DNA of 21,541 nucleotides from a virus (lineage: Duplodnaviria > Heunggongvirae > Uroviricota > Caudoviricetes): the IMG/VR virus record IMGVR_UViG_2526164662_000046; one strand, written 5' to 3'. Shown here piece by piece: positions 2,604 to 19,902 of this stretch. A program made the translations under genes and the position numbers. Below the pieces are notes generated by a model. It was not told the DNA's origin. It worked only from the letters and a program-made list of their open reading frames with translations, and did not search any database. Position 1 is the first letter of the stretch. Each line of letters begins with the position of its first letter.

Positions 2604-2884
2604 GAGATTGTGGTGCTTTTTGTGGGAGTCATCCACTTACGCACTTTGTTTTGCGATGCCAGCAGTTAGCTTCTGCTGTGAAACTATTCATGCAGCAAAC
2701 CTGCACTTCACCACAATGGTTAGCATACTTTTCCTGATTAAGATTTTGCCAAATATGCTAGCCATTGTTTCATGTATTGGACCTCCTTACTTTTTATTAA
2801 AGAGATCCAATATTCACTACTCTGTCCGTATCTCTACTCAGGCATCAGCCTTCTTCGTTATCGTATACAGACGAGCGATGAATT

Positions 2885-3100
2885 TTAATCAGTAATGATG
2901 ACATTTGCTGCTGCAGGACCTTTAGCACCTCTCTCTATAGAGAAGGTAACCTTTTGACCTTCAAATAAGGTTCGATAATTATCATTCTGAATCGCAGAAA
3001 AATGCACAAACACATCTTTACTACCATCAACAGGAGAAATAAAGCCGAAACCTTTATCAGCGTTAAACCATTTTACTAAACCAGTCATTTTATTTGACAT
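2885..3100 (-). CDS. cspB: Cold-shock protein, CspA family (CspB-like)
   Basis: 71-aa [41 protein letters not shown]... with RNP1/RNP2 motifs; about 200-nt leader upstream (3101 to about 3300). Confidence 0.85.
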
Positions 3101-3410
3101 TCTACATTCCTTAACTTGAGCCTTTCGGCATAAATGGTTTGCATAACAGAAACGACTTCGTACTTAATTGGAGAGACTCAAAGAAGGAATAAGTGAATAA
3201 CACCTGAAATGAGAACTGCTTTAGTAAACTACTTCGTATATCGTCTGTTCTTCAAACCGACGCAGTCATTAACTCATAGTTGAACATATGAAGCAATGTT
3301 TATTTTAGACATCCAGCCACCTTCAATCCTATCAAAAAAGTAGTTTTCTCCAGGAACGTGTGTATGGTGCACCAGGTTATCAGTATTAAGGAGTTTTTCT
3401 GTCCCCTAAA

Positions 3411-3775: not shown

Positions 3776-5402
<1,627 letters not shown>

Positions 5403-5439
5403 GTAAGCGTGCAGCAAGAACCGTATTGACGGGGATGTG

Positions 5440-6978
5440 TTATTCAGTCGGCAGTGCTACGCGCCAGGGGAGCAGTTCGCCGACCCGGTTTATCGGCCAG
5501 TCGGCTATGACGTCAAGGACATAGCGGAGGTAGCTTTCTGGCTCCACTCCGTTCAGTTTGCACGTCCCGATCAGGCTGTACAGCAGCGCTCCCCGCTCTC
5601 CTCCATGATCCGAACCGAAGAACAGGTAGTTTTTGCGGCCCAGACTGACCATCCGCAACGCATTTTCAGCGATGTTATTGTCCGCCTCAGCCCAGCCATC
5701 ATCTGCATAGTACGTCAGCGCCGGCCACTGGTTCAGGGCGTATGCGAACGCTTTCGCCAGTTCTGAGTGTCGCGACAGGGTTTTCATCTTTTCACGCAGC
5801 CAGCTTTCCAGGGATTTCAGCAGCGGTTTCGTTTTCAACTGACGTTCGGCAAGGCGCTGCTCCGCCGTCATTCCCCTTATCTCTGCCTCGATGGCGTACA
5901 GTTCGCCGATCCGTTTCAGCGCTTCCTCCGTCAGGGCTGACGGGGTGCGAACGTGCACATCGTGGATTTTACGGCGGGCGTGAGCCCAACAGGCGGCTTC
6001 CGTTATCCGGCCATCCCGGTACAGCTCGTTGAACCCGGCGTATGCATCCGCCTGCAGTACACCACTGAACCCCGCAAGATGGGTCTGCGGATGGATGCCT
6101 TTTCTGTCCGGGCTGTAAGCGAACAACACCGCCGGCGCCAGCGTTGACCCGGCGTTACGGTCGTCACGAACGTAGGTCCATAACCGCCCGGTCTTCGTTT
6201 TCTTATTGCCTGGCAACAGCACCGGGACAGGCGTGTCATCAGCATGGAGCTTACCGTCAGTCAGCACATAGTCCTGAAGCGCTTCTTCCAGCGGTGACAG
6301 TAGCCGGCAGCATGCATCCACCCAGCCCGACAGCAGTGAACGACTCAGCTCCACGCCCTGGCGGCCGTACATTTCAGACTGGCGGTACAGCGGGGTGTGC
6401 TCTGCATACTTTGAGATCAGCACGCGGGCCAGCAGCCCCGGTCCTGCGATACCCCGCTCGATGGGCCGTGAAGGCGCGGGGGCCTGCACGATGGCATCGC
6501 ACTGAGTACAGGCATGCTTTTCACGTACAGTCCGGATAACCCGGAAGGCGCTGCGCATCAACTCCAGCTGTTCGGCGGCATCCTCACCCAGATAGCTCAG
6601 TGAGCCTCCACATTCCGGGCAGCATGATGCTGCCGGCAGCAGCCGTTTTTCATCGCGGGGGAGTGATTCGGGGAACGGTTTGCGGGTGCGGGTTTGACGC
6701 AGCGGGCGCTGCACGGCCGGGTCGTCAACCCGACCGGTAAGGGTATCACTTTCTTTCTGAAGTGCCTTCAGGTCAGCTTCCATCTGTGCGATACGACGGG
6801 AGACTTTTTCGGAGCGGCTGCCGAAGTTCATCCGGCGCAGCTTATCCAGCTGTGCCTGCAGATGGTCTATTTCGCGTTCACGCTCGTTCAGCTTTTCCAG
6901 CAGGGCACGGTTCAGCGCCTCCTGTTCGGCAAGGAGACGTTTCAGTGCATTGATATCGTCAGGAAGTGAGCTGCTCAT
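5440..6978 (-). CDS. IS66-family transposase (TnpC/Orf3)
   Basis: 512-aa ORF with N-terminal coiled-coil/leucine-zipper ([38 protein letters not shown]) and CPECGG / CTQCD zinc-finger-like motifs typical of IS66 transposases. Confidence 0.85.
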
Positions 6979-7026
6979 ACCGGGTATATTACCAGGCTCA
7001 TTCAGCGTCGACCAGGATAAAGAGGC

Positions 7027-7374
7027 TTACAACATAGTCAGGGACGTAAGCAGTCTTTTAGGCTGCCGCCAGTCGATACCTTCCAGCAGCATCGCCAGCT
7101 GTGCCGGTGTGAGGAACACTTTGCCATCCCGGGCTGACGGCCAGGCGAAGCGGCCGCGCTCCAGCCGTTTGGTCAGCAGACACAGTCCATCGCCGGTAGA
7201 CCAGAGGAGCTTTACCTGACTGCCATTACGCCCACGGAAGATAAAAACGTGACCTGACATCGGATCGTCTTTCAGCGTCGTCTGCACCTTTGCCGCCAGG
7301 CCGTTGAAGCCGTTTCTCATATCGGTGATGCCAGCGACCAGCCAGATCTTTGTCCCTGATGGTAATGGGATCAA
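7027..7374 (-). CDS. IS66-family accessory protein TnpB (Orf2)
   Basis: 115 aa; position and size match IS66 Orf2; start overlaps the tnpA stop (ATGA at 7371-7374). Confidence 0.8.
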   Translation of the reverse strand: MIPLPSGTKIWLVAGITDMRNGFNGLAAKVQTTLKDDPMSGHVFIFRGRNGSQVKLLWSTGDGLCLLTKRLERGRFAWPSARDGKVFLTPAQLAMLLEGIDWRQPKRLLTSLTML

Positions 7375-7775
7375 CGTTTGAGCTCCCGTATCAGCAGGTT
7401 CAGGATATTTTCGCTGATGGCACCATTCAGACGGAGTGATCCGTGCCGGAACGTCACTTCACAGCTGATATTGAGTGATTCAGGTGTCGCAGCAGCTACA
7501 GGTTGTGACCGGGGGGAGGTTGTAGGGACAACATCTTCGGCATCAAGTGTTATCGGGAGCAGCTCAGGCACGTTGTTTTCTGTTGTTGAAGGAGGACGTA
7601 GTTTTCCTTCGCGCCAGTACTGGCGCCACTTGAACAGCAAATTATCGTTGATCCCATGCTCACGAGCGAGTTGCGCTACGGAGATCTCTGGTCGATGCGA
7701 GAGTTCAACCATTTTGATTTTGAACTCAACGGGATAATTAGGGCTTTTTTTACGCACTGCGGTTAATGATTTCAT
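7371..7775 (-). CDS. IS66-family accessory protein TnpA (Orf1)
   Basis: 134 aa with HTH-like region (ISVAQLAREHGINDNLLFKWRQ); first ORF inside the IS end. Confidence 0.8.
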   Translation of the reverse strand: MKSLTAVRKKSPNYPVEFKIKMVELSHRPEISVAQLAREHGINDNLLFKWRQYWREGKLRPPSTTENNVPELLPITLDAEDVVPTTSPRSQPVAAATPESLNISCEVTFRHGSLRLNGAISENILNLLIRELKR

Positions 7776-7856
7776 GGATAGCGTCCACCATATTTGGTGT
7801 CCACTATTCTCTCAGGAATTTCAGGATCTGCCAGACGGTGCTGAGACGACGCTTAC

Positions 7857-10128: not shown

Positions 10129-10284
10129 TTACTCCTCAGGTTCGTAAGCTGTGAAGACAGCGACCTCCGTCTGGCCGGTTCGGATTCGTACCTCGCAGAG
10201 GTCTTTCCTCGTTACCAGTGCCGTCACTATGACGGTTAAACAGATGACGATCAGGGCGATTAACATCGCCTTTTGCTGCTTCAT
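10129..10284 (-). CDS. hokD: Hok/Gef-family membrane toxin (type I toxin)
   Basis: 51 aa MKQQKAMLIALIVICLTVIVTALVTRKDLCEVRIRTGQTEVAVFTAYEPEE; ATG 10282-10284 with AGGAGA Shine-Dalgarno; single transmembrane helix plus conserved C-terminal periplasmic tail. Confidence 0.9.
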   Translation of the reverse strand: MKQQKAMLIALIVICLTVIVTALVTRKDLCEVRIRTGQTEVAVFTAYEPEE

Positions 10285-10958
10285 AGCCTGCTTCTCCTTG
10301 CCTTTCGGCACGTAAGAGGCTAACCTACATATGTCTAGCATGAAATTGGCCTCAGATTAATGTTAAGCGTCTTGCAGGACGCGTAATGTTAACTGGGGCT
10401 TTTCTCTATCTGCCGTTGGTGTTCATGCCCGAGGCAGATAGCCTCAAGCACCCGCAGCCATTCTACTTAACTACCGTTACCTCGCCAATGTGAAATCAGT
10501 CAGAAAGGCGATCCATAAGAACAATAGCAAGACAATAAATCGCCATTACAGCCGTAATAGCCAGCGCACATTTGAGAACCAGCACCACAACCTCCTGTAT
10601 TGGACGTAGACCAGTCCTGATGAATATGAGGCTGTCTCGTCAGTGATTCAATACAACTATTGGGTATAGTTTCTCTGATTTTTTCTGTGGAAATGGGGCA
10701 CAACCACTAGTCACCACCAGCACTTCTTTTAATACGCAAAGTCCGACACAAGCTAACTTTCTAGTCCGCTTTGAGCGAAAAACAGCCATAATTTAGTGCC
10801 ACGTATATAATGATAGAGCTATTCAAGCTAGCAATTCACATGTAAAAATTCAGAGGGTAGAAGCACATAGTTATAAATGTTGGCTCCATCGACAAATTGC
10901 GGTCTCAAGTACATTTATTAATGTTGCCCCCGCATTAACAAATCATCAAGGTGACGAC

Positions 10959-12746
10959 ATGGACGATATTAATATCAGCCTCGACGAACTTAACACTATT
11001 GATTTATCCCCCTTAATCCAGAGTAAGCTGCCAGTTACCTGCTTTGATATCACAAAGTATCTTTCTAGCCTAGGTGATGGAAGAGCGGAGATAAGACTGC
11101 TAACCCATATTTGCGGTTTTCACTTTCGTCCCGAAAATCCACAGGTACCATTTGGTCCGTGCTTTCAAAGCAGCCAAGGTAGATCTGCAATTCCGGATGA
11201 CATTAACGGGTTGTCGCTGGAGGTACTTTCTCAATTTTGCCCGACGATAGAGCTACCCGAACTTCAAGCTCGTATTGCTGATACACTTTGGGTTCGTAAA
11301 ATTGGTGGAATCCGTTTTCCTTTGCTGGCAGTCCGTGCTTATTATGCGTCCAGTATAGCTATTATGACATCGCAAGGGACGTGGGTTAGTGCTTTAGAAC
11401 GCCTAGAGCGTGCGCTTAGGCTGTGTTGTTTTTTTCGAAAGCATACTGATTTCAGGGATGAATTTGATCAGCTTTCGGCACATCTACTAGCAGAGTATGA
11501 ACGTACCAGAGAACAAGGCGATTCACCTTATCCGCTGCGACTCCTGCAACTCGATATCGACTGTAAAGTGAGTGAGCCATCTTTTATTGCCCAGGAACTC
11601 CTGTTTCTGACAAAAAACTATCTGGCTCAAAAATTATTTTCATTTGCCGTCGATGCCTGTAAAACCGCAATCCCGATTGCGAATAGGTGCTGTGACAGAG
11701 ATACACAGTTTGAATTCTGGCGGCTTCTTGCCGATACACATCTGGAAGAGTCAAAATTCCAAGATGGCGGTATGATTTCGGCAGCCTGCATGCAGAATGC
11801 TATTGAAGCACTGGCTAATATTCCAGGAACCCGAATAGAACGTCTTGCGCTGTATGAAGAAATGCGTGATTACCAAATCGAATCCCGTCACCAGATGTCT
11901 ATCCTTCAGTCTCCCCCTCAAGATATTAGTGAGATTGTCCATCAAGCCAAGAGTCGGGTAGTCGGAAGAGATTTGTTTGATATGGTTTTCAGACTTGCGA
12001 TGCTGGTCTGTCGGCCAACCAGCATTGAGAGACTTAAGGCTCAAGCAATAGAACAAAAGGCCAACAGCATAGCTTGGATGTTTGGATCAACACATATTGA
12101 TCATGAGGGAATGACACTTGCTCGCATACCCGCAGGATTGGGGATTGATGATGCAAATGGGGCAGTTATTTGGCCCATAATGATGACGAGAATGCGTATC
12201 GACCATGAGTTGGCAGTAGCTGGGCAAATTATTCCTGCTACAGATGAGATCACAATGAAATATCCAATCTCGGAGGCGTTTTTTCGCGATATGTTCATCA
12301 ATCATCCCTTCATCCCGTTTGGGCATGAAGAGTTTTTCATCAAGGGTATGGTTTGCGGTTTCAATGGAGATTTTATGACGGCATGCCACGTGTTGATTCC
12401 CCAGATCGAAAATAGTCTGAGATATGTGGCTAAAATTAAAGGTGAGGAACCATCGCAGCTTCACGGGGACGGTTCGCAAGAGCGAAATGGACTCAAGGGA
12501 TTACTAGATAATCCACTGATTATTGAAGCTTTCGGCGTAGACATAATTGGCAATCTTCAGGCCTTACTGGTAGATAAAATCTATGGTGATTTACGAAATC
12601 AACTAGCTCACGGATATGTGCCTGCCGGTTACTACAATCAACCTCCCTGCATTTTTGCATGGTGGCTTGTATTGCACATTCTAATGAACCCTACGGCGAG
12701 ATACTGGCAAGCCACTTATGGCCAAGAGAGTGAGGCTCAGACTTAA
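10959..12746 (+). CDS. Large hypothetical protein (595 aa), candidate anti-phage/abortive-infection effector with HEPN-like R-x4-H-G motif
   Basis: ATG 10959 with AAGGTGA 5 nt upstream; uninterrupted 595-codon frame; opposite strand to all surrounding phage operons; rare codons (AGA, ATA, CTA) in the first 150 nt; C-terminal motif DLRNQLAHGY (R546...H551, nt 12594-12614) matching the HEPN R-x4-6-H signature; no homologue I recognise from the K-12 Qin prophage. Confidence 0.8.
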   Translation: MDDINISLDELNTIDLSPLIQSKLPVTCFDITKYLSSLGDGRAEIRLLTHICGFHFRPENPQVPFGPCFQSSQGRSAIPDDINGLSLEVLSQFCPTIELPELQARIADTLWVRKIGGIRFPLLAVRAYYASSIAIMTSQGTWVSALERLERALRLCCFFRKHTDFRDEFDQLSAHLLAEYERTREQGDSPYPLRLLQLDIDCKVSEPSFIAQELLFLTKNYLAQKLFSFAVDACKTAIPIANRCCDRDTQFEFWRLLADTHLEESKFQDGGMISAACMQNAIEALANIPGTRIERLALYEEMRDYQIESRHQMSILQSPPQDISEIVHQAKSRVVGRDLFDMVFRLAMLVCRPTSIERLKAQAIEQKANSIAWMFGSTHIDHEGMTLARIPAGLGIDDANGAVIWPIMMTRMRIDHELAVAGQIIPATDEITMKYPISEAFFRDMFINHPFIPFGHEEFFIKGMVCGFNGDFMTACHVLIPQIENSLRYVAKIKGEEPSQLHGDGSQERNGLKGLLDNPLIIEAFGVDIIGNLQALLVDKIYGDLRNQLAHGYVPAGYYNQPPCIFAWWLVLHILMNPTARYWQATYGQESEAQT

Positions 12747-12843
12747 AGTGAATAAGTTTACGAAGTTGGCACTTCCGGATGCATGTCCATATGAGTTGAG
12801 GCGATTTGGTTAATAAGGTTGAGTGCTGCTGAAATTATTCGAT

Positions 12844-12867
12844 GTCCGCTTTTGGCACAAAGCGGAC
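12844..12867. terminator. Perfect 9-bp stem-loop in convergent intergenic region (possible terminator)
   Basis: gtccgcttt (12844-12852) / aaagcggac (12859-12867) with 6-nt loop; lies between the stops of the 595-aa gene and the 133-aa minus-strand gene; no clear U-run on either strand, so terminator function is uncertain. Confidence 0.35.
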
Positions 12868-12964
12868 AACCACGCCAGATCTACCCTGTGCCATGAAAAA
12901 TGAGAATGTCAATTCACTCCTGAACTAATGCTTTTTAATCTAGTAACGTCTAAAATACCTAACA

Positions 12965-13366
12965 TTATCCCTGATAAAATGCCAGTATGCGCTGCATAAC
13001 TTCACTCATCCGGCACTCGCGACAGATTATGTTTAGGCGACTGTCGTAGCGACGTATTTCTCCATCAGGTAACGACCAGATAAGGTCCGGATCAACCACA
13101 GCTGTTTTCTTCACCTTTGCCCTCGAGAGTTTTTTGCGGGCGTTTTGCCAGTCCTTACGCGCCTGTTCAGACGGGAATAACCCGTAGCCGGAGTTGTATA
13201 CATCGCCACTGGCTACCAGCTCTCTGGCAAGAACGCTCATCAGATATCTAGTCGCACCTGTTTTAGCTTCCAGTTGCCGTAACGTCTCACGACCGCTCTG
13301 GCGCACGAGTTCCACCACCTGCCCTTTAATTTTTTCCCGCTCTTCTTGTGTAAAAACTTTTGCCAC
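12965..13366 (-). CDS. Hypothetical protein, 133 aa, last gene of the replication-side operon
   Basis: ORF 41 nt downstream of the initiator gene on the same strand; basic, with a possible winged-helix segment (TLRQLEAKTGATRYLMSVLAREL); no family recognised. Confidence 0.55.
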   Translation of the reverse strand: MAKVFTQEEREKIKGQVVELVRQSGRETLRQLEAKTGATRYLMSVLARELVASGDVYNSGYGLFPSEQARKDWQNARKKLSRAKVKKTAVVDPDLIWSLPDGEIRRYDSRLNIICRECRMSEVMQRILAFYQG

Positions 13367-13406
13367 AAGTCCCCCTTAAAATTACCTCATGACCTGAAAT
13401 CAAAAC

Positions 13407-14426
13407 TTATCCTCTGAAACCAGGCGGAATTTCTGTATCCGGTTCAGAAATATGATTAACACAACGCTGTACAGGTGAACGCCCCAGGCGGATGACCAGT
13501 TCGTCCCATTTTTCGCGGAGCTTTGACGGGCTCATGAAGTTTTTTACCCAGAATGGATCCCGCTGTACCCGACCAAACATTTCACAAATTTGTCTGTGGC
13601 TTCTGCCATCCAGCATCCGCATTGTGCGCACATCATTGGCCCAGACAGTCCAGTTAGGCTCTTTTGGTCGCATGATCTCGCCATCATCACTGGCGGCCTG
13701 TTCGTAGAGACCCACGATCCGCCCCCATATCCACTGCGCACACGCCAGATCCTCCTGGCTACCCCACTGGCGTTTTTTCGCACTAAACACAACTGCGCCA
13801 GGGTGCCGGATTAAAAAATCCTGTTCAGCCGTCTGCGGGTCCGGTTGCGAAGCTTCCGGACGAAAAGTGTTTTTATTCTCTGTAGTAATCTCTGTTGTAT
13901 TCTCTGTAGGATCATCGGGCCATTTTGACCCGATGACATTGGGTCGTTTTGAACCAATGGAGCGTTTCATTTTGACCTCTTCCATCGTGTCATTTTGACC
14001 TGATGGAGCGGCGCATTCTGAACCGATGGATTCGCTCAATTTGCCATCATCTAAAAGCTCGCTCCCATAGTTAATCGTGTAGAAATTGGTCATATCGCGC
14101 TTTGATTTATTGAGCTTTTCACAACGCAAAAGCCCCAGCGTTTTCAGACTTGCAAACGCGCGCTTTAACGTTGACTCTGACCAGAATGGGAACTGTTCCA
14201 GCCATTGTTCCGTTGTGTTGTAAATCCAGCGAACACCATCACATTCCATGCCGGAATTGGTATCTCTCAACCAGTAATGCAACTGCTGCAACACAATGGC
14301 TTCATTTAAGCCAATCTTCATCGCAAGCTGTGTGTTTATAACCAGTGGGCGTTCAGCAAAAAGAAGGCTCATAATTCCATCCAGCTTTTTGTTGGTATTG
14401 CTGTCGATACGCAAGTTTGAAAGCAA
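13407..14426 (-). CDS. Putative phage replication initiator (lambda O-like functional analogue) with internal origin iterons
   Basis: 339-aa ORF; N-terminal HTH-like region; the central coding region contains an array of about 23-24-bp direct repeats plus an adjacent AT-rich tract, the arrangement seen at lambda ori inside gene O. Start uncertain (alternatives at 14372 or 14321). Confidence 0.6.
   Translation of the reverse strand: MLSNLRIDSNTNKKLDGIMSLLFAERPLVINTQLAMKIGLNEAIVLQQLHYWLRDTNSGMECDGVRWIYNTTEQWLEQFPFWSESTLKRAFASLKTLGLLRCEKLNKSKRDMTNFYTINYGSELLDDGKLSESIGSECAAPSGQNDTMEEVKMKRSIGSKRPNVIGSKWPDDPTENTTEITTENKNTFRPEASQPDPQTAEQDFLIRHPGAVVFSAKKRQWGSQEDLACAQWIWGRIVGLYEQAASDDGEIMRPKEPNWTVWANDVRTMRMLDGRSHRQICEMFGRVQRDPFWVKNFMSPSKLREKWDELVIRLGRSPVQRCVNHISEPDTEIPPGFRG
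13921..14060. repeat. Iteron-like direct repeat array (5-6 units, about 23-24 bp period), putative prophage replication origin
   Basis: Units beginning 13921 (cattttgacccgatga), 13945 (cgttttgaaccaatgga), 13968 (cattttgacctcttcca), 13991 (cattttgacctgatgga), 14015 (cattctgaaccgatgga), 14038 (caatttgccatcatcta); flanking AT-rich tract 13865-13915 with ttctctgtag repeated. Confidence 0.6.
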
Positions 14427-14874
14427 TTGCTTTTTCTATAAGTTCGTCAGTTTCACGATCCACTACGGCAGGATCAGCAAAAAGCAGTCCGGACTCCACC
14501 ACATCGCCATATTCTTTGTTTAACCCGGCGATCATGTACGTGATGCTTTTTCCGTCACTAATTTCACGATACAACCTGAAATCATTAATCCGGATAGCCT
14601 CCATAATTGCAGGCACTAGCGCCGTGAACTTTTCACGCTTATCCCTGGTGTCGATAGCCTTCCAGCGTTCGAATATCTTCACTCGATTAACGCCAAGCGC
14701 TCGCTGATCAACCGCGCCACCTTCATCTGTGACACGCTGAACATCGATGTTCGGGCGCTCTTTCAAAGCCCAGAATGCTTCAGTGATTAATATCGTCGCC
14801 TGCTCCTGTGTCATTCCTGGTCGACATATCCAGGCATCCAGAGCCTCACGAGCCTGTTCAGGAGTGATTTTCAT
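14353..14874 (-). CDS. YdaT-like prophage protein (CII-position gene), 173 aa
   Basis: Start ATG 14872-14874 overlaps the dicC stop by 17 nt (translational coupling); segment KREKFTALVPAIMEAIRINDFRLYREISDG resembles Rac YdaT as I recall it. Assignment is tentative. Confidence 0.55.
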   Translation of the reverse strand: MKITPEQAREALDAWICRPGMTQEQATILITEAFWALKERPNIDVQRVTDEGGAVDQRALGVNRVKIFERWKAIDTRDKREKFTALVPAIMEAIRINDFRLYREISDGKSITYMIAGLNKEYGDVVESGLLFADPAVVDRETDELIEKAIAFKLAYRQQYQQKAGWNYEPSFC

Positions 14875-16733: not shown

Positions 16734-16786
16734 TTTCTGGTGACGTTTGGCGGTATCAGTTTTACTCCGTGACTGCTCTGCCGCCG
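16734..16786 (+). ncRNA. dicF: DicF small RNA (Hfq-dependent antisense sRNA targeting ftsZ and others)
   Basis: tttctggtgacgtttggcggtatcagttttactccgtgactgctctgccgccg matches the 53-nt DicF sequence as I recall it, including the 3' GGCGG...CCGCC stem and following T-run (16787-16791); correct position upstream of dicB. Confidence 0.8.
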
Positions 16787-17430: not shown

Positions 17431-19902
17431 ATGAGTAAAGTCTTTATTTGCGCCGCTATTCCTGACGAACTGGCAACAAGGGAAGAAGGCGCTGTGGCTG
17501 TAGCCACAGCCATTGAAGCTGGCGACGAACGCCGTGCTCGAGCAAAATTTCACTGGCAATTCCTGGAACATTATCCGGCTGCTCAGGACTGCGCTTATAA
17601 ATTTATTGTCTGCGAGGATAAACCTGGCATACCCCGCCCTGCCCTCGATTCATGGGATGCTGAATATATGCAGGAAAACCGCTGGGATGAGGAGTCTGCT
17701 TCTTTTGTCCCGAATGAGACTGAATCCGATCCGATGAACGTCACTTTTGACAAGCTGGCCCCTGAAGTACAGAACGCTGTCATGGTTAAGTTCGACACAT
17801 GTGAAAACATCACCGTTGATATGGTTATTAGCGCACAGGAATTGTTGCAGGAAGACATGGCAACATTCGACGGACATATCGTTGAAGCGTTGATGAAAAT
17901 GCCAGAAGTTAACGCCATGTATCCGGAGCTTAAGTTGCACGCCATTGGGTGGGTTAAGCATAAATGTATTCCTGGTGCTAAATGGCCCGAAATTCAGGCA
18001 GAGATGCGCATCTGGAAAAAACGTCGCGAAGGTGAACGCAAGGAAACCGGAAAATACACGTCTGTTGTTGATCTCGCACGCGCCAGAGCCAATCAACAGT
18101 ACACTGAAAATTCAACAGGAAAAATCAGCCCGGTCATTGCTGCCATTCATCGCGAATACAAGCAGACATGGAAAACACTGGATGACGAACTGGCCTACGC
18201 TCTCTGGCCTGGTGATGTGGATGCCGGAAACATTGACGGCAGCATCCATCGCTGGGCAAAAAAAGAAGTTATCGACAACGACCGCGAAGACTGGAAGCGT
18301 ATCTCGGCATCAATGCGCAAACAGCCTGATGCCCTTCGCTACGACCGCCAGACTATTTTTGGCCTTGTCCGTGAGCGTCCGATCGACATTCACAAAGATC
18401 CCGTAGCACTGAACAAATATATCTGCGAATACCTGACGACAAAGGGCGTGTTTGAGAATGAAGAAACAGACCTGGGCACTGTTGATGTTCTCCAGTCATC
18501 AGAAACACAAACTGATGCAGTGGAAACTGAGGTATCTGATATCCCAAAAAATGAAACCGCGCCGGAAGCTGAACCATCTGTAGAGCGTGAGGGGCCGTTC
18601 TATTTCCTCTTCGCAGATAAGGACGGAGAAAAATACGGTCGCGCAAACAAACTTTCTGGTCTGGATAAGGCACTGGCTGCTGGCGCCACTGAAATCACAA
18701 AAGAAGAATATTTTGCCCGAAAAAATGGCACATACACGGGCTTACCGCAAAATGTAGATACCGCTGAAGATTCAGAACAACCAGAGCCGATAAAAGTTAC
18801 CGCTGACGAAGTAAACAAAATTATGCAGGCAGCCAATATCAGCCAGCCTGACGCTGATAAGTTGCTTGCTGCATCACGTGGTGAATTTGTTGAAGGGATT
18901 AGTGACCCGAATGATCCGAAATGGGTTAAGGGGATCCAGACCCGCGATTCTGTGAACCAGAACCAGCATGAATCGGAACGGAACTACCAAAAAGCGGAAC
19001 AAAACAGTCCAAATGCGTTACAAAACGAGCCAGTAACGAAACAGCCTGAACCAGTAGCGCAACAGGAAGTGGAAAAAGTCTGCACCGCCTGCGGTCAGAC
19101 CGGCGGCGGCAACTGCCCTGATTGTGGCGCGGTGATGGGCGACGCAACATACCAGGAAACATTCGATGAAGAGTATCAGGTTGAAGTTCAGGAAGATGAT
19201 CCGGAGGAAATGCAAGGCGCTGAACATCCACACAAGGAGAACACTGGCGGCAATCAGCATCACAATAGCGATAATGAAACTGGCGAGACGGCAGATCACC
19301 CAATTAAGGTGAACGGTCATCACGAAATCACATCCACCAGCAGGACGTGTGACCATCTAATGATCGACCTTGAAACCATGGGAAAAAATCCTGATGCCCC
19401 GATCATCTCAATAGGTGCAATATTTTTCGATCCGCAAACCGGAGATATGGGACCGGAATTTAGTAAGACTATCGATCTGGAAACTGCTGGCGGAGTCATT
19501 GATCGGGACACCATTAAATGGTGGCTTAAGCAATCACGCGAAGCGCAATCTGCCATTATGACCGATGAAATCCCGTTAGATGATGCACTGTTACAATTGC
19601 GGGAATTTATCGACGAAAACTCCGGTGAATTTTTTGTTCAGGTCTGGGGAAATGGAGCCAACTTCGACAACACGATTTTGCGCCGTTCATACGAACGGCA
19701 GGGGATCCCCTGCCCGTGGCGTTACTACAACGATCGCGATGTACGCACAATCGTTGAGCTGGGGAAAGCCATAGACTTCGATGCCAGAACGGCTATTCCA
19801 TTCGAAGGTGAGCGCCATAATGCACTTGATGACGCCCGTTACCAGGCAAAATACGTTTCAGTTATCTGGCAAAAACTGATCCCGAGTCAGGCTGATTCTT
19901 AA
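17431..19902 (+). CDS. Prophage exonuclease, 823 aa, with C-terminal DnaQ-like DEDDh 3'-5' exonuclease domain and internal zinc ribbon (YdfE-like, full length)
   Basis: GAGG Shine-Dalgarno before ATG 17431; C-terminal motifs MIDLETMG (Exo I), WGNGANFDNTIL (Exo II), HNALDDARY (Exo III with His); C-x2-C-x9-C-x2-C (CTACGQTGGGNCPDC); acidic low-complexity linker. Occupies the ydfE position (downstream of ydfD, upstream of xis/int). Confidence 0.8.
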   Translation: MSKVFICAAIPDELATREEGAVAVATAIEAGDERRARAKFHWQFLEHYPAAQDCAYKFIVCEDKPGIPRPALDSWDAEYMQENRWDEESASFVPNETESDPMNVTFDKLAPEVQNAVMVKFDTCENITVDMVISAQELLQEDMATFDGHIVEALMKMPEVNAMYPELKLHAIGWVKHKCIPGAKWPEIQAEMRIWKKRREGERKETGKYTSVVDLARARANQQYTENSTGKISPVIAAIHREYKQTWKTLDDELAYALWPGDVDAGNIDGSIHRWAKKEVIDNDREDWKRISASMRKQPDALRYDRQTIFGLVRERPIDIHKDPVALNKYICEYLTTKGVFENEETDLGTVDVLQSSETQTDAVETEVSDIPKNETAPEAEPSVEREGPFYFLFADKDGEKYGRANKLSGLDKALAAGATEITKEEYFARKNGTYTGLPQNVDTAEDSEQPEPIKVTADEVNKIMQAANISQPDADKLLAASRGEFVEGISDPNDPKWVKGIQTRDSVNQNQHESERNYQKAEQNSPNALQNEPVTKQPEPVAQQEVEKVCTACGQTGGGNCPDCGAVMGDATYQETFDEEYQVEVQEDDPEEMQGAEHPHKENTGGNQHHNSDNETGETADHPIKVNGHHEITSTSRTCDHLMIDLETMGKNPDAPIISIGAIFFDPQTGDMGPEFSKTIDLETAGGVIDRDTIKWWLKQSREAQSAIMTDEIPLDDALLQLREFIDENSGEFFVQVWGNGANFDNTILRRSYERQGIPCPWRYYNDRDVRTIVELGKAIDFDARTAIPFEGERHNALDDARYQAKYVSVIWQKLIPSQADS

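Follow-up and report, generated by a model that had tools for sequence, protein, structure and literature searches.

A solitary HEPN-domain gene of the PDC-S39 family in the cargo slot of a defective Qin-like prophage: a candidate anti-phage effector

Introduction

HEC-08 (DUF3644 HEPN and zinc ribbon), DS-11 (CBS and HEPN), DS-38, PD-T7-4 (HEPN and zinc finger) and ApeA are validated single-protein HEPN systems. In each, a HEPN RNase and an accessory region without catalytic role are parts of one polypeptide. The defence conferred by HEC-08 and DS-11 is lost when the Rx4-6H residues are mutated; the single-protein HEPN design therefore works and depends on these residues. A gene for a 595-aa protein of similar layout is described here. 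It is carried by IMG/VR virus record IMGVR_UViG_2526164662_000046, a Caudoviricetes sequence of 21,541 nucleotides (the whole stretch is called the window). The five validated systems belong to other HEPN families and have other accessory domains; their PADLOC and Pfam models do not match the 595-aa protein.

Two published descriptions are closer. PDC systems are 145 guilt-by-embedding candidates found in BREX, DISARM and type I restriction-modification (RM) loci (Payne et al.). The protein is a member of one of them, PDC-S39, with no difference at the sequence level. It is ~600 aa long and is encoded by a single gene; the DUF4209 proteins of the P2 hotspot match the same models. PDC-S39 was defined by its embedding in BREX, DISARM and RM loci, whereas the present gene is the cargo of a prophage. 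DUF4209 was itself described as the C6orf70 (ERMARD) HEPN family, with a conserved Rx4-6H motif and TPR fusions; bacterial versions, found in RM-related operons, were predicted to be catalytically active, and the HEPN domain of eukaryotic ERMARD was traced to bacterial ancestors (Anantharaman et al. 2013). The likeness to this family includes a Pfam score above the cut-off, a conserved Rx4-6H and fused TPR-like repeats. Eukaryotic C6orf70/ERMARD proteins are predicted to reside in the endoplasmic reticulum membrane through a transmembrane helix; the 595-aa protein has no convincing segment of this type and carries an N-terminal DUF7380.

Other HEPN families are more distant. In HepT/MntA (type VII toxin-antitoxin), HepT (~130 aa) has as its partner an MNT antitoxin, by which a Tyr is AMPylated, whereas the 595-aa protein is unpaired: no MNT gene is found beside its gene (neighbours: hokD/sok and a DUF977 gene) or in any homologue context. 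AbiJ, Abi_2/AbiD/AbiF, the C-terminal domain of AbiA and RnlA/LsoA have a different N-terminal architecture and give no hidden Markov model (HMM) match to the protein. The family, its HEPN nature (2013), its defence candidacy (PADLOC, DefensePredictor) and its hotspot location (Rousset 2022) are already on record. A claim of novelty does not stand, as the first three of these are in the literature and form part of an annotation tool in standard use.

Results

Assignment to PDC-S39

The coding sequence is identical, over the region, to that of WP_000340969.1, annotated 'DUF4209 domain-containing protein'. A first-pass annotation, made from the letters of the window alone, had stated that the protein could not be assigned to any named defence family. 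This statement is overturned by the HMM searches that it proposed: the protein belongs to PADLOC PDC-S39 and to the C6orf70-type HEPN family, and carries Pfam DUF7380 and DUF4209. DUF7380 (PF24098) covers residues 4-166 (E 3.4e-34; 118.6 bits, cut-off 27) and DUF4209 (PF13910, now EMARD_N) covers residues 484-573 (E 3e-8; 33.9 bits, cut-off 22.3); both are matched by all aligned relatives (45/45 for each). Both PDC-S39 HMMs are matched over almost their full extent (E 2e-102 and 7e-102; for the first, E 2.1e-102, residues 43-581 of the protein align with 54-602 of a profile of 615). The match is thus that of a near-full-length, single-gene system, and the gene has no conserved neighbour. No other Pfam or PADLOC profile is matched at E up to 1. 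NCBIfam gives no match, and the PHROGs matches are to families of unknown function only. Abi_2/AbiD/AbiF, RnlA/LsoA, ApeA and the other named HEPN defence families are ruled out by the lack of any Pfam or PADLOC profile match.

An exhaustive profile search retrieved 7,528 cluster representatives (clusters at 50% identity) with E <= 1e-3, of which 2,887 reach E <= 1e-30. A length of ~600 aa and an end-to-end match are common to all of the best 150 of the 7,528 representatives. The exact protein is found on 866 contigs, the full-length gene is present in 148 of 5,426 complete E. coli genomes and full-length homologues number in the thousands; the open reading frame (ORF) is therefore a real gene and not a chance ORF. 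Its conservation is 99-100% over many lineages of E. coli, and the Enterobacter copy has 97% identity. A literature search returned nothing on DUF7380, WP_000340969, P2-EC46 or ERMARD in connection with HEPN.

C-terminal HEPN domain

The last ~200 residues adopt a HEPN fold in the predicted structure. Residues 396-595, modelled separately (predicted local distance difference test, 91; predicted template modelling score, 0.86), form a predicted four-helix up-and-down bundle. R546-NQLA-H551 lies immediately ahead of the long terminal helix (562-594), as a HEPN Rx4-6H motif. Las1, Roquin, MtlR and LsoA/RnlA are among the lower-ranked entries of the match list for this domain. A Foldseek search of the domain model against the PDB gave no significant match; PDB sequence searches with full-length and C-terminal profiles gave weak TPR matches or noise only.

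The first-pass annotation had read the C-terminus as HEPN-like, with an R-x4-H motif in the string DLRNQLAHGYV preceded by HEEFF...IPQIENSLRYV. Both strings are present in the translation (DLRNQLAHGYV, 12588-12620; R546, 12594-12596; H551, 12609-12611), and this reading is borne out: R546 and H551 are a conserved pair of the catalytic type, invariant in two sets of relatives. In an alignment of 45 sequences (down to 24% identity), 12 columns are invariant, including Q482, E484, S486, R488, R546, H551 and G552. In an alignment of 146 of the retrieved representatives (21-37% identity to the query), the only invariant columns are G467, R546 and H551; conservation is 90% or higher at P481, Q482, E484 and R488.

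Residues R546 to Y553 (12594-12617) read R-x4-H-x-Y, the form in which the Tyr of HepT toxins is AMPylated by MntA. Position 553 is Y, F, L, R or K across the family. The likeness is probably coincidental, because Y553 is not conserved and no MNT gene is located nearby.

N-terminal region

The first ~370 residues consist of DUF7380 and a TPR-like alpha-solenoid. Because the N-terminal region is such a solenoid in the predicted structure, a sensor role for the first ~400 residues is plausible. A search with the N-terminal profile for other architectures including DUF7380 retrieved truncated fragments only. A transmembrane anchor was considered on account of ERMARD and of Phobius, which calls one transmembrane segment in P2-borne relatives. 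It is not supported by the hydropathy profile of the 595-aa protein, which includes no convincing segment (Kyte-Doolittle maximum 1.75, on an amphipathic helix with Glu and Asp; 1.13 for the C-terminal helix).

A solitary cargo gene

The gene belongs to a 2.1-kb unit (table below) that is 94.5% identical to a segment of an Enterobacter hormaechei prophage; the homology ends exactly at the unit limits. The 9-mer GTCCGCTTT is present at both ends (10764-10788 and 12842-12868). It has 3 matches in the window versus 0.2 expected, and 3 is reached in 0 of 100 shuffles. The hairpin of the right end is not a canonical intrinsic terminator, because it has no T-tract; the end element may instead mark a module junction or serve in recombination. 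The unit behaves as a moron: it is self-contained, it occurs in other phage backgrounds, and at its fixed place in the prophage it can be missing or exchanged for other genes. The stand-alone cargo gene of the first-pass annotation is thus recovered, since the homologue contexts examined have no neighbour in common and the unit is shared by the window and the Enterobacter prophage.

These contexts are diverse. The E. hormaechei copy (97% identical) is adjoined by a TIR-domain (TIR_2) gene, GNAT genes, dinI and a cloacin/immunity pair. An Enterobacter kobei prophage has a 39%-identical homologue between antiterminator Q and holin; in Citrobacter, an 81%-identical homologue is found beside prophage genes (Peptidase_S24, DinI, tail-fibre fragment). 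Distant members (22-24% identity; PDC-S39 HMM, 1e-67 to 1e-85) fill the gpA-portal slot of P2-like phages. Chromosomal homologues (Vibrio, Aeromonas, Shewanella, Pseudomonas, a cyanobacterium) are located in small islets, and each islet has neighbours of its own, unrelated to those of the others. The search for a partner gene or an antitoxin conserved with the gene led to the rejection of this idea: the ~160-aa products of the downstream genes of Vibrio and Aeromonas are unrelated, and the other neighbours vary (PIN, SLFN_AlbA_2, GNAT, TIR). No antitoxin or immunity partner is encoded in any homologue context examined. As the neighbours are different and unrelated in every context, it is concluded from these comparisons that members of the family travel alone, without conserved partner, from one cargo hotspot of prophages and phages to another.

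Gene, expression signals and base composition

The 595-aa plus-strand ORF with its ATG start and its Shine-Dalgarno sequence (AAGGTGA, 10948-10954, 4 nt ahead of the ATG) are present as first annotated. Rare codons had been noted at the 5′ end; CTA38, GGA41, AGA42, ATA45, AGA46 and CTA48 do exist, but the enrichment is weak (14% in codons 1-50 vs 9.7% across the remaining codons). The gene is slightly AT-richer than the whole window (GC 0.449 vs 0.471). Both flanking genes had been described as convergent. This applies to the right neighbour, the DUF977 gene, which is tail to tail with the gene, but not to hokD/sok on the left, which is head to head (divergent).

The conserved 195 bp upstream of the gene include a perfect -10 box (TATAAT, 10806-10811) with a weak -35. 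The E. hormaechei copy keeps this box and the last 45 bp upstream despite a 44-bp deletion between them. The promoter is considered putative because a consensus scan found no strong sigma-70 site above threshold on the plus strand upstream of the gene. A terminator scan detected none after the gene.

Variable slot and surrounding prophage

Positions 10700-12900 of the window are 100% identical to E. coli ATCC 25922 and to many other strains. The ATCC 25922 copy, also annotated 'DUF4209 domain-containing protein', is part of a Qin-like prophage integrated beside rspAB. Homology to K-12 Qin stops at 10298, just beyond hokD, and restarts at 14595. Between these limits, K-12 carries relE-relB-ydfV-flxA-ydfW and no replication genes. 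The first-pass annotation placed relBE at the corresponding position of Qin, and relE-relB do follow hokD in K-12; relBE is located directly upstream of hokD there, where the homology of the window has stopped. It also proposed a replacement of cargo. The contents of the slot do vary between strains, but the segment that differs from K-12 (10299-14594) is larger than the gene.

Occupancy of the hokD-DUF977 site was searched with its joined flanks. In E. coli B (C2566), hokD is directly followed by the DUF977 gene (empty site); in ST131 strains, the slot is occupied by queH (epoxyqueuosine reductase); in one 420-kb record, the slot (window 10454-12964) holds an IS481 transposase. Its contents in E. 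hormaechei are the TIR_2, DUF4209, GNAT and dinI genes and the cloacin/immunity pair. By these sequence comparisons, the cargo carried between hokD/sok and the DUF977 gene is variable.

Relative to K-12 Qin, two insertions of insertion sequences (IS) split the antiterminator Q gene (ydfT). Both are absent from ATCC 25922, and the window therefore derives from another strain. From this split, the late functions of the prophage are inferred to be lost, and its late operon is probably dead in the window.

IS-linked and truncated alleles of the gene exist. Strain DEC9B has an IS2 copy 58 bp ahead of the ATG, and the ORF of some Logan assemblies runs into an IS3-like end (TGATCCTACCCACG...) that stops it after codon 369. 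Several clusters of truncated proteins (116-369 aa) have from tens to more than 100 members each; some of these clusters are possibly contig-end artefacts.

Features of the window that bear on the gene, its cargo unit and the slot
Feature	Position	Strand	Basis or content
Coding sequence, 595 aa, ATG start	10959..12746	+	translated ORF
DUF7380 domain (aa 4-166)	10968..11456	+	Pfam PF24098
TPR-like alpha-solenoid (~aa 84-370), overlapping the C-terminal part of DUF7380	11208..12068	+	
C-terminal HEPN domain (aa 396-595), predicted	12144..12743	+	
Conserved helix motif I-P-Q-I-E-N-S-L-R (aa 480-488)	12396..12422	+	
Pfam DUF4209 portion of the HEPN domain (aa 484-573)	12408-12677	+	
R-x4-H motif R546-N-Q-L-A-H551, predicted RNase active-site residues	12594..12611	+	
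Conserved upstream region with putative promoter and Shine-Dalgarno	10764..10958	+	sequence, cross-species conservation
Mobile cargo unit (moron): upstream region, gene, downstream hairpin	10764..12867	+	homology limits vs Enterobacter hormaechei prophage
9-bp-stem hairpin GTCCGCTTT-TGGCAC-AAAGCGGAC, right end of the unit	12844..12867	either	
hok/sok locus, intact (hokD ORF and sok)	10129-10453	-	Rfam sok 10279-10453, 112.7 bits
DUF977 gene, right neighbour, convergent	12965-13366	-	
IS3-family insertion in Q	3918-5174		rve transposase ORF 4120-5166, +
IS66-family trio in Q	5403-7856		ORFs 7371-7775, 7027-7374, 5440-6978, all -

Other features of the prophage were observed. Rfam detects an isrC small RNA (145 bits) at 3985-4107, just within the IS3-family insertion, two cspA thermoregulator elements (2869-3261 and 1-359) ahead of prophage csp genes, and DicF at 16735-16786. 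In the early-left operon, an 823-aa 'exonuclease' ORF (17431-19902, plus strand) ends in an Rv2179c-like 3′-5′ exoribonuclease domain (E 2e-67), which is preceded by a large region without annotation. Where a replication protein would be encoded, between the DUF977 and YdaT genes (13407-14426, minus strand), lies the gene of a 339-aa protein for which Pfam gives no match at E <= 1e-3.

Discussion

Proposed function

The balance of the evidence tilts towards the following reading: the gene encodes a single-polypeptide HEPN-type RNase of PDC-S39, self-contained cargo of a defective Qin-like prophage, which would act as an anti-phage effector. In the lysogen, transcription would start from the gene's own promoter, antisense to the early-right operon of the prophage, and expression would be independent of the late functions. 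Because no antitoxin gene is present, the N-terminal helical region is proposed to keep the HEPN domain inactive in cis. HEPN RNases are metal-independent and act as dimers, with a composite active site built from two Rx4-6H motifs. Binding of a phage-derived trigger by the solenoid would license dimerisation or opening of the HEPN domain; the cleavage of cellular or phage RNA would then stop translation, leading to abortive infection or to the exclusion of competing phages.

E. coli DUF4209 proteins are labelled 'predicted novel defense gene' by DefensePredictor (Science 2026), with log-odds of 4.3-8.1: a protein of 595 aa scores 4.34, one of 602 aa 7.4 and one of 617 aa 8.1. The 595-aa protein of its tables is WP_021514655.1; that it is the same allele as WP_000340969.1 could not be confirmed. 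DUF4209 proteins are also systems #13 (193 loci) and #55 (76 loci) of the P2 hotspot (Rousset et al. 2022, Table S5B), which correspond to a vB_EcoM-569R9 protein and to P2-EC46 ORF612, respectively.

Several points count against an anti-phage function. The score of 4.34 is under the 7.2 cut-off line of the DefensePredictor paper, and the units cloned for that paper, as tabulated there, include no DUF4209 protein. Plasmid pFR103 ('Putative HEPN') carries system #13 of E. coli S88, which is listed in Table S2B (additional tested systems), not in Table S2A (validated systems); for two other systems of Table S2B, the absence of detected activity is stated, and the panel consisted of eight coliphages (Rousset et al. 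2022). This relative, the only tested family member found, is 22-24% identical to the 595-aa protein. The authors of the PDC systems explicitly call them untested (Payne et al.), and no phenotype of the protein or of a close relative was found in the literature. Most chromosomal homologues are located in small islets amid housekeeping genes and not in obvious defence islands. IS-linked and truncated alleles are common, which fits a costly toxin and dispensability alike. Finally, the promoter, the dimerisation, the trigger and the RNA target are all elements that we infer. A defence function of the protein is considered plausible.

Alternative explanations

An active HEPN RNase could be carried as cargo for a purpose other than immunity, as a stress-responsive or prophage-maintenance toxin or as a factor of inter-bacterial competition. 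This is unlikely, though the least unlikely of the alternatives. Toxin-antitoxin and bacteriocin genes are carried in the slot or its neighbourhood (hokD/sok; relBE in K-12; cloacin and its immunity gene in E. hormaechei), and the tested P2-hotspot relative is absent from the validated phage-defence systems. Such toxins are, however, at odds with the absence of any antitoxin or immunity partner and of any MNT neighbour, with Pfam results that include no secretion signal or delivery domain, and with the way in which the family was picked up, through its embedding in BREX, DISARM and RM loci and in the P2 defence hotspot.

Improbable, too, is a cytoplasmic or membrane-proximal protein of RNA processing or regulation, of the kind predicted for C6orf70/ERMARD, which would serve the physiology of the host or of the prophage. 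PF13910 is common to the 595-aa protein and to eukaryotic proteins, a transmembrane segment is called in the P2-borne relatives and many homologues are found amid housekeeping genes. A physiological role would not predict a patchy, strain-variable distribution (148 of 5,426 genomes) or a location in phage cargo slots, and the hydropathy of the protein argues against a membrane segment.

The chance that the gene is a functionless passenger, intact but silent or decaying in a defective prophage, is likewise small. The crippling of the prophage by the split of Q, the lack of a strong upstream promoter match and the insertion or truncation by IS elements (58 bp upstream in DEC9B; codon 369 in other isolates) would agree with decay. 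Against this stand the intactness of the ORF and its conservation across E. coli and Enterobacter, the invariance of the catalytic residues R546 and H551 throughout the family and the maintenance of TATAAT and Shine-Dalgarno sequences between species. A HEPN protein without catalysis, with a role in binding or regulation such as MtlR and Roquin-type HEPN domains have, is very improbable, because inactive HEPN domains typically lose Rx4-6H (Anantharaman et al. 2013), whereas all 146 divergent sequences retain R546 and H551.

Significance

If the anti-phage reading is right, its extension to the family would be that PDC-S39 proteins are one-protein immune sensors, in which recognition of a phage protein by the solenoid sets free the activity of a HEPN RNase of C6orf70/ERMARD type; this extension is put forward tentatively, and its confirmation would validate thousands of lineages. 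The locus brings no new category of system. Its value is that of a test case: a 2.1-kb unit, two catalytic residues, and strains in which the site is naturally empty or occupied. Should the prediction hold, a function would be gained by a very large and uniform family (~7,500 clusters, best matches of ~600 aa), with members in ATCC 25922 (a reference strain), V. cholerae and P2-like phages. The bacterial proteins related to human ERMARD would become open to experiment, and would offer a first biochemical handle on the uncharacterised HEPN domain of eukaryotic ERMARD.

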